From an uncultured Chloroflexia bacterium (GTDB lineage: Bacteria; Chloroflexota; Limnocylindria; Limnocylindrales; CSP1-4), in NCBI GenBank assembly GCA_963766735.1, contig CAVYBU010000006.1, positions 128,001 through 192,000 of the forward strand: DNA of 64,000 nucleotides. The letters run 5' to 3'. A program made the position numbers and the translations under genes. Position 1 is the first letter of the stretch. Every line of letters starts with the position of its first letter. This document shows, in pieces, positions 57,930 through 64,000 of the stretch. A model generated the notes under the pieces. It was not told the origin of the DNA. It did not search any database and saw only the letters and a program-made list of their open reading frames with translations.

Positions 57930-58247
57930 TCCCAGATAAGTCGCGGGTGAGCGGCGCGCGGCACCATGCCGCGCATGCCTGCGACGACCCATGGCTCCGA
58001 CCGCCACGGAGCCAGATCCAACCACCCAGGGCCAACCGCCCGGGTTCCCGGGCACCCGCCGCTGGGCGGCCGGGTTGACGCTGCCGATCCCGCATCCCTA
58101 TCGTTCGCGCCATCAGACGGCGCCGCTACCGGCAGCAGTTCCCGGCCGAACCCGTCGACGTCAGGGCACGAGGGACATGCGCTGGTCGCGGTCGGGCCTG
58201 GGATCGCAGGTTCAATGCTGTTCGCGGGACCGATCGGGCGGCTGGGG

Positions 58248-61200
58248 ATGAACCCGCTGCCGATCCAGCCGGCGAAGATCCACCCGCCGCTGCTCCGCCA
58301 CGATGTCCTCTCCCGAGAGCGCCTCAACGGCTGGCTGGACAACGCGGCGAACGGGCGCGTCGCGCTGGTCATCGCCGAGGCCGGGTTCGGCAAGACCACG
58401 TTCCTTGCGGACTGGGCGCGCCACACCCGACGCGCAACGGCGTGGTACCGCCTGGAACCGGATGACCGGGACTGGCTCGCCTTCATCAGGCATCTGGTCG
58501 CAAGCGGCCGGGAGATCGACCCCGGGTTCGCTCCGGATACCTACGACCTGCTGGCCGCACTGGGGCCAGGTGGTCCGTCCAGGGATGACCTGATCGTCAG
58601 CGTCGCCCAGGAGATGGCCGAACTCGCATCGTCGCTGCCCAACGGCCTGAGCCTCCTGTTCGACGACTACCACTCCGTCGACGGCAGCCCCGAGACCGAG
58701 CCCGTCATGAAGGCCCTGGTCGATCGAACGGGACCCGAATTCTCCCTGGTCATCGCGTCCCGGGCGGCGCCATCGCTCGCCCTGGGCAGGCTGCGCGCCC
58801 GCGGCGCCCTCTCGCGGATCGACGGCGACGGCCTCTGTTTCGACGTCCCCGAGACGGAGCGCCTCTTCCGGGATGCCTACCACCAGCCCCTGGACGCGGA
58901 CGTGGTGGTGGACCTGATCGCCCGGACGGAAGGCTGGGCCGCGCTCCTGTCGCTGGTCCACACGAGCCTTGAGGGCCGAGCGGCCGTCGAGGCTCGCGGG
59001 CTCGTCCGGCACCTGTCGGGCGCTCGCGGCGACATTCGTGACTATCTCGCCGAGGAGGTTCTCGACCACCTTGCTGATCATCTTGCTGACTTCTTGGTGC
59101 GCGCTTCGATCCTCGATGTTGTCGGGCCCGAGTCTGCGGCGCTACTTGGGATCGGCTCCAGAGATGAGTGCGTGGCAATGATCCGAGACGCCGCTGGCCT
59201 TGGTCTTTTGGTCGAGATCACGACGGGTGATGGCCACAGGTTCGTTCCGCTCGTTCGCGAGTACTTGTCCGCCCGTCTGAGCCGAGAAGAGGGGTGGGCC
59301 GCGATCCGCGATGCCCACATGATGCTGGGTGCGCACTACGTCGACTCTGACTGGAGGCTCGCCGCTCATCACTATCGCGCTGCGGGGCAGCCGAGTTTGG
59401 CAGTCCAAGTCATCCAGAACTCCCTGAGCACCATCCTCGGCAGCGGACAGTACCGAGCTGCAGCTGACCTACTCGCCGGTTCCGACGAACTCGTCGTAGG
59501 CGAGGTCCTTCGCTCACGACTCTTGCTACAAGTCGGCGCGGTCGCCGAAGCCCGATCCGCGTCGAGTTCCGCAGTCGCTGCCGCAGCATCGCACCGCCCA
59601 GCCGACCAATCGCTCGCTCTGCAGAACGCCGCAACGATCTCTCTGGTGTCTCGTCAGTACGAGGAAGGTCTCAAATACGCCGAAGAGGCGGAGGCGGCAG
59701 CCACCGACAGGTGGGAAGGGGAGCTCGCCCGGGCTCATGTCGCTCTGCTTGGCGCATCGGGAACTGGGAGCCTTCCGGCCCTGGTGCACCAACTTGAGCG
59801 CCTTCTGGGCGTCCAGCGCAAGCGGGCCTACTGGCATCACGCCGCCATCACAAGCCTCAACCTTGCTCAGGTCCTGGTTTGGCTGGACCGAGACACGGAA
59901 GCGCTGCGACATGCAGCCGACGCTGAAGAATTCCTGACCCGGTCATCCCAAGGCTATGAGTTGGTTTCCGTCAAGCTGGCGCAGGCTCACGCCGAGGCGC
60001 ACCTCGGTCACTGGTGCGCAGCGCAGGCACTACTCGAGACCTCAGTTCAGACAGGCCACCCCGAGGGACAGGCTGAAGCGGTTCTAGACGCGGCAGGACT
60101 TGCTGCGTGGTTCGGGCCGAACGATCTCCCAGCGCGAATCCTGGCTCAGGTTCGGCGCGAGTCCCTCCCGTCCAGCTGGAAGGCACATTGGCGTATCGTC
60201 GATTTGTGGCTTGAGGAAGAGTCGCAGCGGCGGTCAGAGATCCTCGATGAGTTGCGGGCCGATCCGCCCCCCTCACTGGAGGTGGGGGCGGCATTTCGAT
60301 GGCACTACACGAAGGCCAGGGCCTACCACGCTCAAGGGGATGCCAAAGGGTTCGACGACGAGATCGCGCGGGTTGACCAAGTCTGCCAACTCCAACGCTC
60401 ACCGGTCGAGGAGCGGCTTCAGGCGTTGCTCCGTGGGGTCGCATCAGGACCACAGCATCTGTCGAGGGTGATTGAGTCTTGGAGTCCGGCCTCCGCCCCT
60501 CTGATTGGGGTACTCGCGTACGAGGTCGCGGGCCTCCTAGGCTCCCTATCCGATGACGCCGCCGCTGCGGTTGGTCGTGCCGTGGCAGGTGCCCCATACA
60601 GATGGCGACGACCTCTGAGGGTCATGCTCGAGAAGGCCGGCCCGGCGCGACACCTGGACCGTATTGCACAACTGCTTGAGGAGATCGGCGAATCGGCCGA
60701 TGTTCAACTGCTTCGCGAGTACGGTCGTAGGTCGAAACGCGCGCGCGGAAACTGGGGCGAGGACTTGGGGCGACGACTCGCCCCGAGGGCGTTCATCGAG
60801 GATCTAGGCCCGATCTCGATCATCATTGGTGATCGCGTGATCGACGGGCGAGGAATCCGCCGCAGAGTCCTCGGCCTTCTTGCCTTTCTGATTAGCCAGC
60901 CCAACGGATCAGCAACGCCCGACCGCGTCATGGATGCACTGTGGCCTGAGTTGGACCCCGGGCAAGGGAGCAACTCGATCCACCAGACCATCTACTTCCT
61001 TCGGCGCGTGATCGACCCAGACTACCGGGCAGGCGTCTCTCCCGAGTACGTGCACTTCGATAGTGAGGTGATCTGGCTCGATCGGGATCTCGTGCAGTGC
61101 AGGAGTTGGCGCTGTCAGGCTCTCCTAGGCAAGCGCGCCCTCTCGCCATCAGAGGTCGACGAACTCGTCCGGGACTACTGCGGGCGGTTCGCGGCCGAGT

Positions 61201-61493
61201 TCCCGTACGAGGACTGGGCGTCGGACTATCGGGACCATCTACATGCGCGCTACCTGGGCGAGATCGAGAAGGTCCTCTCAGAGCCTCGTCATAGTCCAGA
61301 CCTGCGATGGAGATTATGGGTCGGCCAGCGGGCGCTTTCGGTCGATCCTGAAGCCGATGCGGTCGAGGCTCACGTGATCCGGTTGTATCGCCGACTTGGG
61401 GCGTCTGCCGCCGCGGCAGAGCAGTACGGGCACTACTCGACCGTCATGAGAGACCAGCTCGGCGTCGAGCCCCCTGGGATCGAGGACCTCTGA
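58248..61493 (+). CDS. Large MalT-like AAA ATPase - TPR - wHTH/BTAD transcriptional regulator
   Basis: KIHPP..R...RERL, Walker A AEAGFGKTT, LFDDYH, TEGWAA, DYLAEEV; helical TPR-like middle; LLAFL...DALWPE...LRRV wHTH and BTAD-like end. Confidence 0.88.
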   Translation: MNPLPIQPAKIHPPLLRHDVLSRERLNGWLDNAANGRVALVIAEAGFGKTTFLADWARHTRRATAWYRLEPDDRDWLAFIRHLVASGREIDPGFAPDTYDLLAALGPGGPSRDDLIVSVAQEMAELASSLPNGLSLLFDDYHSVDGSPETEPVMKALVDRTGPEFSLVIASRAAPSLALGRLRARGALSRIDGDGLCFDVPETERLFRDAYHQPLDADVVVDLIARTEGWAALLSLVHTSLEGRAAVEARGLVRHLSGARGDIRDYLAEEVLDHLADHLADFLVRASILDVVGPESAALLGIGSRDECVAMIRDAAGLGLLVEITTGDGHRFVPLVREYLSARLSREEGWAAIRDAHMMLGAHYVDSDWRLAAHHYRAAGQPSLAVQVIQNSLSTILGSGQYRAAADLLAGSDELVVGEVLRSRLLLQVGAVAEARSASSSAVAAAASHRPADQSLALQNAATISLVSRQYEEGLKYAEEAEAAATDRWEGELARAHVALLGASGTGSLPALVHQLERLLGVQRKRAYWHHAAITSLNLAQVLVWLDRDTEALRHAADAEEFLTRSSQGYELVSVKLAQAHAEAHLGHWCAAQALLETSVQTGHPEGQAEAVLDAAGLAAWFGPNDLPARILAQVRRESLPSSWKAHWRIVDLWLEEESQRRSEILDELRADPPPSLEVGAAFRWHYTKARAYHAQGDAKGFDDEIARVDQVCQLQRSPVEERLQALLRGVASGPQHLSRVIESWSPASAPLIGVLAYEVAGLLGSLSDDAAAAVGRAVAGAPYRWRRPLRVMLEKAGPARHLDRIAQLLEEIGESADVQLLREYGRRSKRARGNWGEDLGRRLAPRAFIEDLGPISIIIGDRVIDGRGIRRRVLGLLAFLISQPNGSATPDRVMDALWPELDPGQGSNSIHQTIYFLRRVIDPDYRAGVSPEYVHFDSEVIWLDRDLVQCRSWRCQALLGKRALSPSEVDELVRDYCGRFAAEFPYEDWASDYRDHLHARYLGEIEKVLSEPRHSPDLRWRLWVGQRALSVDPEADAVEAHVIRLYRRLGASAAAAEQYGHYSTVMRDQLGVEPPGIEDL

Positions 61494-61649: not shown

Positions 61650-61795
61650 CCAAGGAAACGCTTGGACGCGCTGATGCCACCACCTGAAATGGGCACTTAG
61701 GGTGGAGGCGGAGCGAGTAGTGCAACCGACCGGCTTTCGAGTCAGGTCGGTTTTCGTGTTCCCGGCGGACACGGAGGCCGCAAGGAGGTACGAGC

Positions 61796-61828
61796 GTGGC
61801 ACCGAGCAAGGGCCTCAAGGGCTGGTAG
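61796..61828 (+). CDS. Putative 10-aa micropeptide MAPSKGLKGW
   Basis: Strong SD AAGGAGGT 6 nt before GTG; TAG stop; C-terminus resembles the tail of the next peptide. Confidence 0.5.
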   Translation: MAPSKGLKGW

Positions 61829-61854
61829 GACCAGGATCGCGGGAGGATCGACCG

Positions 61855-61944
61855 ATGAAGGATCGCCTCATGCGACTCCTGGCCACTCTCGGCGCAGTCG
61901 CCGCATTGGCGCTCGCCGGAGGCGCGTCGCTAAAGGGCTTCTAG
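61855..61944 (+). CDS. 29-aa signal-peptide-like precursor MKDRLMRLLATLGAVAALALAGGASLKGF
   Basis: GGGAGGA SD; basic n-region, hydrophobic h-region, LAG-G, short tail. Confidence 0.75.
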   Translation: MKDRLMRLLATLGAVAALALAGGASLKGF

Positions 61945-62029
61945 AAGCAGGCAAGGGCCTCAGTACACAAGTCCTCTTCACTTGTGGGTCGAAGGGGCTA
62001 GAGTCCCACCGTTCGGGAACTGAGGACGA

Positions 62030-63394
62030 ATGCCGACAAAGCTGAAGCTCTACATTATTGGAGTCGTAGCGACGAGCGCTATCGCGCTCGCTGCTACGAC
62101 TCGTTTGATTCCAGTCGAGGACGGGGTTGCCCTGACTGTGGGGCCGTTCGGATCTCTCTCGACTCAGGCAGGCCTCGCATTCTGGTGTGCGGTGACCCTG
62201 ATCGCGTCCGCGCTTCCCGTCCGAATGCCTCGCGGAACCATGGTGGGCGTTTCGATCGCGCCGCTGATTGCGGCCACGGTCCTGGGCGGTCCGACTGCCG
62301 GAGCCTGGGTCGCGCTCATCGGGACGACGGAGGTGCGTGAGCTGCGCGGCCGTGTTCCGTGGTACGGCTCGCTGGCCAACCACGCCGGGCTGATGATCCC
62401 CGCGATGGTGGCCGGCATGGTCATGCGAGTACTCGGCGTCCCGGGGAGCGAGGAGTACGCGATCACCTTCATCGCGGCTCTGATCGGTGCGGCCGCCTTC
62501 TTCCTGGTCAACGCGACGCTCACCGCTGCCGCGGTGGCCCTCCAAACTGAGCAGCCATTTCGCAGCGTGTTGCTGGGCGACGCCAAGGTCTTCGCCACGA
62601 ACCTAATTGGGCTTGCCCCGCTCGCTTGGCTCATGGCCCAGATGTACGAGGTAGCTTGGTGGGCGAGCTTGCTGTTCGCCGTTCCGCTCTACACGACGCG
62701 GCTCGCGTACCACAACATCATCGAGATGCGCGAGATGTTCACTCAGACCATCACCGCGCTGGCTGGGGCCGTGGACAAGCGCGATCCGTACACCAGCAAG
62801 CACTCGTGGCGGGTCAAGGAGATCGCAGGCGATATCGGACGGGTCATGCGCCTGGGCGAGAGTGACCTCGAGGCCCTCGAATGGGGCGGCCTGCTGCACG
62901 ACGTGGGCAAGATCGGCGTGCGGGACGCGGTGCTGCTCAAGCAGGAGAAGCTCAACAAGGAGGAACGGGCGCAGATGAACGCGCACCCGGTCCTCGGTGC
63001 GGAGATCATCGCGCCGGTGACGCGGCTGTCCCGGGAGCTGCCGATCATCCGCCACCACCACGAGTGGTACAACGGCTCGGGGTACCCGGACCGGCTGATC
63101 GGGGACGAGATCCCGCTGCTGGCACGCATCCTTCACGTCGCGGACGCCTTCGAGGCGATGACCGCCGCCCGGCCATACCGGATGACGCCGCTGACCTCGG
63201 AGCAGGCACTGGGCGAGCTGCGCAAGTTCGCCGGCGTCCAGTTCGATCCCAAGGTGGTGGACGCCTTCGTGAAGACAGACTGGGCCCAGGATGTGGCCGA
63301 CCCGGGCCGGACGGCGCAGGCGCGACCGATCCCGCTGATCTCGCAGCACGCGAACCGGACGGCCAACGCCGTTGCCACTCCCGACGCAACCTGA
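62030..63394 (+). CDS. Membrane-sensor (MASE-like, about 7-8 TM) HD-GYP c-di-GMP phosphodiesterase
   Basis: N-terminal TMs; DKRDPYTSKHS, LHDVGKIG, HHHEWYNGSGYP, ADAFEAMT..RPYR, QFDP. Confidence 0.92.
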   Translation: MPTKLKLYIIGVVATSAIALAATTRLIPVEDGVALTVGPFGSLSTQAGLAFWCAVTLIASALPVRMPRGTMVGVSIAPLIAATVLGGPTAGAWVALIGTTEVRELRGRVPWYGSLANHAGLMIPAMVAGMVMRVLGVPGSEEYAITFIAALIGAAAFFLVNATLTAAAVALQTEQPFRSVLLGDAKVFATNLIGLAPLAWLMAQMYEVAWWASLLFAVPLYTTRLAYHNIIEMREMFTQTITALAGAVDKRDPYTSKHSWRVKEIAGDIGRVMRLGESDLEALEWGGLLHDVGKIGVRDAVLLKQEKLNKEERAQMNAHPVLGAEIIAPVTRLSRELPIIRHHHEWYNGSGYPDRLIGDEIPLLARILHVADAFEAMTAARPYRMTPLTSEQALGELRKFAGVQFDPKVVDAFVKTDWAQDVADPGRTAQARPIPLISQHANRTANAVATPDAT

Positions 63395-63503: not shown

Positions 63504-64000
63504 ATGCTGATCGGCGGTATCGCGCTCGGGCTGGTGCTCGGTCTGCTCCTGGGCGGGCGCCTGGAGAACCTGGCCGGCATCCGGCTGCGCTTCCTGCCGC
63601 TGCTGTTCGCGGCGGTGATCCTGCGGTTTGCGACGGAGGCGCTGCTCGGGATGGGCGTCGAGGTCGTGGACCTGCTGCGCGTGCCGCTGCTCGGAGGCGC
63701 GTACGGGCTCCTGCTCTTCACCCTCTGGCACAACCGCTCGTACCCGGGCCTGGCGCTGGCCTTCATCGGGATCGCGTCCAACACCCTGGTGATCGTGTGG
63801 AACGGGGGCTGGATGCCGGTGTGGCAGCCCGCCTACGACGCGTCCGGGCTGGCGGGACCGCTCTACTCGCAGCTCCACTTCCCGATCAGTGGCACCGGCG
63901 CCGAGTTCCTGGTCCACCTGGGCCCGCTGGCGGACGTCGTCCCGTTCCCCATCCCACCGCTGCAGAACGTCGCCTCGGTCGGTGACCTGTTCCTGACGGC
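63504..64000 (+). CDS. DUF5317-family membrane protein, 3'-partial
   Basis: Translated by hand: MLIGGIALGLVLGLLLGGRL.NL..IRLR...N..VI..NGGWMPV...LADVVP...SVGD; runs off the window. Confidence 0.85.
   Translation, partial: MLIGGIALGLVLGLLLGGRLENLAGIRLRFLPLLFAAVILRFATEALLGMGVEVVDLLRVPLLGGAYGLLLFTLWHNRSYPGLALAFIGIASNTLVIVWNGGWMPVWQPAYDASGLAGPLYSQLHFPISGTGAEFLVHLGPLADVVPFPIPPLQNVASVGDLFLT

Follow-up and report, generated by a model that had tools for sequence, protein, structure and literature searches.

A DUF5317 membrane domain with a near-invariant aspartate pair, its micropeptide partner and a c-di-GMP riboswitch operon in an uncultured Chloroflexota bacterium

The stretch of DNA analysed here ("the window") comprises 64,000 nucleotides of an uncultured Chloroflexia bacterium (GTDB lineage Chloroflexota; Limnocylindria; Limnocylindrales; CSP1-4) and corresponds to positions 128,001 to 192,000 of contig CAVYBU010000006.1 in GenBank assembly GCA_963766735.1 (G000:C6:128001-192000 in our numbering). 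At its 3' end begins a gene whose product opens with the membrane domain DUF5317. As far as sequence comparison indicates, this domain represents a family of its own and not a detectable member of peptidase family A8, the family of signal peptidase II (LspA). It carries a pair of aspartates that is a real, family-wide feature, and there is strong support for a micropeptide of about 30 residues as its obligate genetic partner. With regard to function, the reading that we favour, at somewhat less than even confidence, is that of a juxtamembrane peptidase which acts like LspA, is unrelated to LspA and clips the tail of the peptide. The features on which this argument rests are the following (window positions).

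63504..64000, + strand: DUF5317 domain of a DUF5317-linker-major facilitator superfamily (MFS) protein; the window holds residues 1-165 of about 185 (AlphaFold2 model, Pfam, NCBIfam).
63780..63803, + strand: N93 to N100 of the near-invariant motif G89-x3-N93-x6-N100-G-G-x-M-P, placed by the model at the outer end of helix 4.
63933..63986, + strand: D144 to D161, the invariant aspartate pair, predicted to flank a hairpin (strands 144-148 and 155-158; conservation and model).
61855..61944, + strand: 29-residue micropeptide MKDRLMRLLATLGAVAALALAGGASLKGF (peptide alignment and genome-wide hidden Markov model, HMM).

The open reading frame (ORF) that starts at 63504 on the + strand passes the window end by 1663 bases, to contig position C6:193663, and encodes 719 residues; its translation holds FIGIASNTLVIVWNGGWMPV and GPLADVVPFPIPPLQNVASVGDLFL. 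An initial annotation, made from the letters of the window, had supposed that the frame continues and may be fused to another domain, and this proved correct, the second domain being an MFS_1/MFS_3 transporter. DUF5317 occupies residues 1 to about 185, followed by a low-complexity linker of approximately 110 residues (to about residue 300; rich in Arg, Pro, Ala and Gly) and the transporter (residues 307-709). Membership of Pfam family PF17248 (DUF5317) is established by the full protein over residues 26-172 (76.5 bits against a gathering score of 25; E 2.8e-21) and is apparent from the in-window part as well (residues 26-164; E 6.7e-20); the match was also recovered by a whole-genome scan. The transporter half exceeds the cut-offs of MFS_1 (70.4 bits, cut-off 33.4) and MFS_3 (61.2 bits, cut-off 27) and belongs to the superfamily, while TIGR00900 (DHA3-type) scores 200.4 bits, below its cut-off of 319.6, and the subfamily is therefore unassigned; by its profile matches it would be a 12-helix efflux-type transporter of the DHA3/MFS_3 kind, with the linker in the cytoplasm. 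The fusion is specific to this taxonomic class, from which 20 loci (the class loci) were compared with the present one: all 20 long frames (623-753 residues) belong to families f1 and f3, and DUF5317 frames elsewhere measure about 190-260 residues.

Within DUF5317, the motif GIASN-x2-V-x3-NGG and, after it, LAD followed by 16 residues and D are read in the translation exactly as first described, and GIASNTLVIVWNGG and the LAD-x16-D motif both fall inside the Pfam domain. The codons of the two aspartates lie at 63933-63935 (D144) and 63984-63986 (D161), the latter within S-x-G-D at the beginning of helix 5. In order to gauge conservation, a HMMER scan of 1.84 billion representative proteins (1714 matches at E<=0.001, 150 of these listed) and a word-indexed search for shorter proteins (120 listed) were used; 246 proteins were stored, and the 107 that span the domain make up the set of close homologues. 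Aspartate occupies position 144 in 105 and position 161 in 106 of these 107, and further positions are kept as well (N93 and S158 in 107; N100, N77 and G160 in 106; H125 in 99). The distant set consists of 30 stand-alone DUF5317 members drawn from a sample of 201 genomes of the phylum, in which D144 and D161 are each aspartate in 29 of 30 (the one exception is a gap where an alignment row was cut). All 30 have asparagine at positions 77 and 93 and retain M104 and P105, and 27 have N100; H125 is not conserved among them. Across the C-terminal half, aligned in 46 rows, the invariant positions are G89, N93, M104, P105, D144, G160, D161 and G167. The aspartate pair and the Asn/Ser cluster hence stay near-invariant even at about 25% identity, a pattern well beyond chance, and the aspartates on which the first description had leaned are clearly conserved. 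Apart from these residues, helix 1 (residues 1-23, window 63504-63572) lies outside the Pfam model, yet it is conserved among the close homologues (G13 in 107, G17 in 103, G18 in 106 and L23 in 104 of 107), and its L-x-G-G end resembles the helix end of the partner peptide.

An AlphaFold2 model of the domain (39-row alignment; predicted local distance difference test, pLDDT, 90.9; predicted template modelling score 0.84) has five helices (residues 2-15, 31-49, 59-76, 83-99 and 159-177) and, between helices 4 and 5, four strands (104-107, 125-128, 144-148 and 155-158) that form a sheet from a single loop. In this model D144 opens the third strand and D161 comes after the fourth, in the first turn of helix 5, which puts the pair at the two ends of one hairpin, and the two residues are probably close in space. 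The loops 16-30 and 77-82 are rich in Lys and Arg, and the termini of MFS proteins are cytoplasmic; together with the fusion of the C-terminus of DUF5317 to such an N-terminus, this argues that the sheet and both aspartates face outwards, on the outer surface of the membrane. The invariant polar residues N77, N93, N100, D144, S158 and D161 would accordingly cluster at the outer helix ends.

The micropeptide has a basic N-terminus, one hydrophobic helix, a lipobox-like but Cys-less L-A-G-G-A, a tail of five residues and an aromatic C-terminus. The same build is found in the 22 peptides that were aligned (basic N-terminus, hydrophobic helix, [LIMV]-[AG]-[GAS]-G-A and a tail of 4-10 residues with W or F); all 22 keep the G and A of the motif, and the helix itself is variable. 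Pfam offered no credible match to the alignment (best E 0.047, one member each), and NCBIfam none at all. A lipoprotein reading was rejected, with Cys at position +1 in 0/22 aligned peptides.

The genetic partnership was examined with an HMM of these 22 peptides, run over the 201 whole genomes (the sample includes the unpublished G145, whose single peptide match is weaker than 1e-3). It found 39 places at E<=1e-3, and 36 of them have a PF17248 place on their contig no more than 5 kb away, a count that is partly circular, the HMM and the regular expression used below being derived from DUF5317-adjacent peptides, and that comes from kindred rather than independent genomes; at least 12 of the 36 are outside the training set. 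All 36 share the strand of DUF5317 (30 upstream, 6 downstream), and the remaining three are on other contigs of DUF5317-positive assemblies. Counted from the other side, the peptide is nearby in 37 of the 79 DUF5317 places. A strict regular expression for the peptide matched 14/22 class loci (a count that includes L005 and L034), 6/29 stand-alone loci and 0/30 control loci (99.5 kb); in the 3.6-Mb genome of the window it occurs in three places, two of them beside the two DUF5317 copies. Among the 20 class loci, 12 have the peptide by the strict pattern, and L073, L075 and L076 have variants of it. Where an HD-GYP phosphodiesterase gene is absent, peptide and DUF5317 are 130-290 nucleotides apart, and the minimal conserved unit is therefore the peptide plus DUF5317.

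Co-folding of the two proteins is weakly consistent with a contact: the median interface score (ipSAE) was 0.51 (runs 0.61, 0.38 and 0.51) against 0.00 for the best of three controls, the runs share at least 98% of their contacts and the pLDDT of the partner is at least 66. The mark is reached by 116/157 solved and 2/215 mismatched pairs, whereas at ipSAE <=0.60 both mismatches but no more than 18 of those 157 reach it.

The initial annotation had proposed that DUF5317 is an LspA-like aspartic protease dedicated to this peptide. LspA itself is present in canonical form in this genome, in the order ileS-lspA-rluD, and its Pfam family PF01252 occurs in 40/41 sampled genomes of the phylum (one of them, G038, unpublished). 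BLASTP of the DUF5317 domain against the genome's own LspA gave an E of 1.7 only; PF01252 was matched at E<=10 by none of 39 DUF5317 members in a Pfam scan (0/39), nor by the fusion protein; and a DUF5317 profile run against all PDB sequences returned ExsF alone (E 1.9) and no LspA. Direct homology, in the sense of membership of the LspA family, was rejected on these three results. In fold searches with the whole model, Foldseek against the PDB gave 0 matches at E<=0.001 and LspA was not among its 45 weak rows (on a second look the best of these had Z 6.0, and LspA was not among the 18 rows shown), while VIA-align against 48,161 chains gave generic helical matches (best Z 8.4, root-mean-square deviation 4.4 over 98 residues) without LspA in the top 50. 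A sub-model of helix 4, the sheet and helix 5 alone (pLDDT 86.6) fared no better, with a best VIA-align Z of 4.6, 0 chains at Z>=5 and no LspA, and 0 Foldseek matches at E<=0.001. Within the reach of these tools, no structural similarity to LspA was thus found, although absence from the rows listed by Foldseek and VIA-align neither excludes a family nor proves different folds.

One result, from profile-profile comparison, points towards the proposal. Using hhalign, 137 DUF5317 sequences were set against 34 LspA sequences of the same phylum, in 28 pairings that included controls (MFS, the HD-GYP membrane domain and reversed profiles). The DUF5317-LspA pairing was the best of the 28, though marginal, with one local alignment of 46 columns (Prob 8.7%, P 0.0038, score 24.4); the best control pair scored 22.1 (P 0.026), and the same pair with both profiles reversed 21.5 (P 0.012). 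The alignment pairs D144 with the Asp of the LspA motif VVD, D161 with the Asp of FNxAD and helix 5 with H4, the last helix of LspA; S158 and G160 fall where LspA has Asn133 and Ala135.

In the available part of its description, LspA has a fold of four transmembrane helices with a beta-cradle, and the enzyme of S. aureus has a catalytic aspartate pair 18 residues apart and 12 other highly conserved residues, namely Asp21, Lys25, Asn52, Gly54, Gly102, Asn106, Asp109, Arg110, Val116, Phe132, Asn133 and Ala135 (PMC6952399, which describes the structures from S. aureus and P. aeruginosa). DUF5317 is likewise small and polytopic, with a small sheet predicted to lie on the membrane, and of the family A8 hallmark (two Asp about 18 apart on the outer side) it has a near-invariant pair 17 apart, which charge bias and the MFS fusion would place towards the outer face, one Asp before a beta-hairpin and the other at the start of the last helix. 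It also has a GxxxN helix motif (G89, N93), and its candidate substrate is a signal-peptide-like helix ending in L-A-G, comparable to lipobox positions -3 to -1. Of the 12 other conserved LspA residues, however, only GxxxN and N-x-G (N100, G102) have look-alikes, found by eye and in an order unlike that of LspA. The Asp109-Arg110 pair that follows GxxxN has no counterpart (V96 and I97 stand there), and Asp21 and Lys25 of helix 1 and the FN residues are missing too. Furthermore, DUF5317 has five helices instead of four, all four strands come from one loop with a different sheet connectivity, the partner peptide has Gly rather than diacylglyceryl-Cys at +1, and the genome keeps its own canonical LspA. 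Other intramembrane aspartyl proteases provide a further comparison. In the GXGD type (presenilin, prepilin peptidase, FlaK) the second Asp lies in G-x-G-D inside a helix, within the fold of the family. DUF5317 has S-x-G-D (S158 in 107/107), and no GXGD-type family appeared in the whole-model fold-search rows or among Pfam matches at E<=10.

Of the proposed LspA-like aspartic protease, the invariant aspartates stand, and the model would place them at the hairpin ends on the outer face; similarity to LspA at the level of family or fold was not found, and the hhalign signal is marginal. DUF5317 can be read as a local LspA-like arrangement on a different scaffold.

The fusion gene is the last of an operon in the order c-di-GMP-II riboswitch (c-di-GMP, cyclic dimeric guanosine monophosphate), 10-residue ORF, 29-residue peptide, membrane HD-GYP and DUF5317-MFS, for which the remaining elements and the conserved upstream neighbour are as follows.

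57966..61493, + strand: large regulator of 1175 residues with an AAA_16-like ATPase, an OmpR-type winged helix (Trans_reg_C) and BTAD (Pfam).
61655..61738, + strand: c-di-GMP-II riboswitch aptamer at the operon head (RF01786, 59.5 bits, gathering score 53.5, E 3.9e-12).
61796..61828, + strand: 10-codon mini-ORF that ends in K-G-W-stop like the tail of the 29-residue peptide (GTG start, AAGGAGG 7 nucleotides upstream).
62030..63394, + strand: membrane HD-GYP phosphodiesterase of 454 residues, an N-terminal multi-helix membrane domain followed by HD-GYP (Pfam, NCBIfam).

The HD-GYP gene is directly upstream of the fusion gene in 20/20 class loci. Its catalytic part matches HD_5 (E 1e-37), HD (E 3e-22) and the NCBIfam model HDIG, and its N-terminal domain has a weak match to the sensor domain MASE9 (E 6.4e-05; 23.4 bits, just under the cut-off of 24.3). 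RF01786 reaches its gathering score at the same place in 11/20 related class loci, and no riboswitch did so in the stand-alone loci L009-L028, for which 1.5-kb flanks were searched (coverage ended before L029-L038). An operon that degrades c-di-GMP is hence itself placed under c-di-GMP control: as in other RF01786 operons, a canonical aptamer above the gathering score precedes the first ORF, and the genes regulated here are the two micropeptide ORFs, HD-GYP and DUF5317-MFS. A mini-ORF of 7-10 codons with a matching tail lies 5-47 nucleotides upstream of the peptide in 16/16 class loci examined (14 of the 20, L005 and the second copy on contig C10), against 13 of 2000 random 176-nucleotide windows; the tail reads K-[GSA]-W or K-G-F in 15 of the 16. 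Upstream of eight peptides from stand-alone loci, none was seen by eye. The mini-ORF could encode a leaderless twin of the peptide or could be a regulatory leader ORF in the expression platform of the riboswitch.

The interval 61654-61952, which contains the riboswitch and both small ORFs, is represented in contigs of four metatranscriptome libraries, each from a different study, and several pieces show 0-1 differences; libraries of this type may include DNA, and contigs give no expression level. Two of these contigs, from two studies, end at 61951 and 61952, within 8 nucleotides past the stop codon of the peptide. Transcription may end here, or the transcript may be processed ahead of HD-GYP, and the contigs give a weak hint of a short leader transcript over the riboswitch and the small ORFs. 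The uncovered parts (most of HD-GYP and the fusion gene in X15, X16 and X18) are uninformative on expression. An inverted repeat (CACAAGT ... ACTTGTG, at about 61966-61990) is located 3' of the contig ends. The regulator matches BTAD (E 8.6e-05; 23.4 bits, cut-off 22.1), with AAA_16 and Trans_reg_C under their cut-offs, and its homologues are found upstream in 13/20 related class loci.

In the favoured reading of DUF5317 as a peptidase, the pair D144/D161, located at the hairpin base, would cleave the micropeptide at its G-A motif or next to it, on the outer membrane surface, and so free the short tail. The fused MFS, in this class, would probably export the leaderless 10-residue peptide, which shares the K-G-W tail. 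Output to c-di-GMP would come through the membrane HD-GYP, with the c-di-GMP-II riboswitch completing a feedback loop. A fuller version, which we consider unlikely as a whole, holds that DUF5317 is a new, LspA-independent family of membrane aspartyl peptidases that cuts the precursor of about 30 residues between L-A-G and G-A to free a peptide of 5-9 residues, that the MFS exports the twin, that the MASE9-like domain of HD-GYP reads the peptides and that the riboswitch gates this peptide-signal layer on c-di-GMP turnover. Peptide pheromone systems offer a parallel. In enterococci, LspA and Eep produce pheromones by cutting the signal peptides of lipoproteins. Like these and the RRNPP systems, the present locus has a short peptide gene next to a large regulator, holds a membrane protein together with an exporter in one cluster and shows a lipobox-type site by the piece that would be released. 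It differs in having no regulator of the RRNPP family (TPR repeats were seen in the L025 regulator homologue and not in that of this window), no S2P or Eep, no ABC exporter and no evidence of secretion, and in having a c-di-GMP phosphodiesterase governed by a c-di-GMP riboswitch as its output.

Several considerations weigh against the peptidase reading. No similarity of DUF5317 to any peptidase family was found in Pfam, PDB or fold searches, the helix count, the sheet connectivity and the missing Asp109-Arg110 set the domain apart from LspA, and the hhalign score barely exceeds its controls. The proximity of D144 and D161 is deduced from the secondary structure of the model, and a position of the peptide motif beside them is presumed. 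The co-folding score falls in a band where results are wrong more often than right unless the guess had prior likelihood, and the proteins substituted as controls were natural, unrelated and of unknown type. The circularity and kinship that qualify the co-location count apply here as well. Short single-helix proteins are often stable regulatory subunits rather than substrates. Finally, the proposed dedication of the domain to the LAG-G peptide holds as a tight genetic partnership (36/39 places, with co-folding weakly in agreement), and cleavage of the micropeptide by DUF5317 is a putative further step.

The most serious alternative, plausible though on balance doubtful, is non-catalytic: DUF5317 and the micropeptide would form a stable membrane complex, a co-sensor or regulator of HD-GYP and, in this class, of the fused transporter, and the Asp/Asn cluster would bind the tail, a cation or another ligand. 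The conserved pairing of peptide and DUF5317 fits this, as does the weakly predicted contact, and a membrane HD-GYP is a neighbour in 14/31 stand-alone loci (1.5-kb flanks) besides the 20/20 class loci. That no fold or family link to any enzyme was found also speaks for it, as does the ligand of MASE9, given as unknown in the available part of its description (bioRxiv 10.1101/2021.11.05.467447).

MgrB with PhoQ and AcrZ with AcrB are small single-pass proteins that modulate membrane sensors or transporters, and the present case resembles them in the following: a one-helix protein of about 30 residues beside a polytopic membrane partner, with a weakly predicted contact, in a signalling operon. 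Here, however, the conserved part is the motif and the tail at the outer end of the helix, a leaderless twin shares the tail, and the partner bears an enzyme-like invariant aspartate pair. An aspartate pair and an Asn/Ser cluster that persist at about 25% identity are more typical of catalysis or ion binding than of helix packing; the peptide helix is variable, while the short motif at its outer end is invariant; and the twin shares the tail only, which points to the tail as the active part.

A role in transport is quite unlikely. In this case DUF5317 would be an accessory or channel-like module (a gating, substrate-binding or ion-coupling subunit of exporters of the MFS_3 or AI-2E type) and the micropeptide its cargo or a third subunit. 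The link between MFS and DUF5317 does recur in three forms, namely the fusion, a permuted fusion and adjacent genes, and the polar residues are located at helix ends. The permuted MFS_3-DUF5317 fusion lies at L084:5884-7929 (- strand) in genome G106:C3, with HD-GYP upstream; just downstream of it, at L084:5741-5821 (- strand), is a c-di-GMP-I-GGC riboswitch (RF03167, 61.1 bits) that presumably controls the next gene. In family f17 (L028, L029 and L032), MFS_3, a stand-alone DUF5317 and an AI-2E-family transporter are tightly packed on one strand, and the sole peptide match in these loci is weak (E 0.006), 2.7 kb upstream, in one genome. Against a transport role, most DUF5317 genes in the phylum stand alone with no transporter within 1.5 kb (the 17 stand-alone loci without HD-GYP include seven with a BTAD regulator and three with MFS_3 and the AI-2E transporter), and the peptide is a more constant partner than the transporter.

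Least of all, and counted within the confidence given to the peptidase reading, is it credible that DUF5317 is a true, very remote LspA (MEROPS A8) homologue with an extra N-terminal helix and a rearranged sheet that cleaves a non-lipidated, Cys-less lipobox peptide, since the pairing of both aspartates and the last helix by hhalign, the spacing of 17 against the 18 of S. aureus LspA (PMC6952399, as far as available), the GxxxN in the preceding helix with N-x-G before a strand and the fit of the substrate to lipobox positions -3 to -1 are outweighed by an hhalign probability near its controls, the absence of PF01252 from all 39 members, the absence of LspA from every listed set of whole-model and sub-model matches, the different motif order with no equivalents of Asp21/Lys25 and Asp109/Arg110, and the canonical LspA of this genome and of 40/41 genomes of the phylum.

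DUF5317 was found in 64 of the 201 sampled genomes of the phylum (about a third) and also in Thermus and Thermotoga control genomes; gene context was sampled in genomes of this phylum only. In a protein atlas, Actinomycetota was the commonest phylum among the nearest DUF5317 clusters; the atlas returned DUF5317 clusters only, and with PF17248 skipped it gave no usable match. The genome of the window holds a second copy of the module on a 16-kb contig (G000:C10:1-16377, L086), with the regulator, the riboswitch, both small ORFs, HD-GYP, DUF5317-MFS and a PIG-L gene. It is about 96% identical over the 1-kb stretch compared, and its HD-GYP is split into two frames near residue 42-45; strain heterogeneity (the assembly has 4.2% contamination), an erroneous assembly or a recent duplication accompanied by a frameshift could account for it. 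Downstream of the window and of the fusion gene is a PIG-L family deacetylase gene (L005:11542-12615, + strand), which is syntenic 3' of the fusion gene in L069, L070, L071, L073 and L086; here an AAA_14/DUF4143 ATPase gene on the opposite strand separates the two.

A full-text literature search for DUF5317 and PF17248 found no paper in the library covered, which contains the HD-GYP survey that defines MASE9 (the literature on the c-di-GMP-II riboswitch was outside that search). The obligate partnership of DUF5317 and the unannotated micropeptide offers a testable function for both genes. If the aspartate pair is catalytic, the domain would represent a new family of membrane peptidases, an LspA-like solution on a different scaffold, and this would also provide a first candidate input for HD-GYP sensors of the MASE9 type. 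Moreover, the combination of a riboswitch, twin micropeptide ORFs and a phosphodiesterase in one operon suggests an undescribed feedback layer on c-di-GMP signalling.

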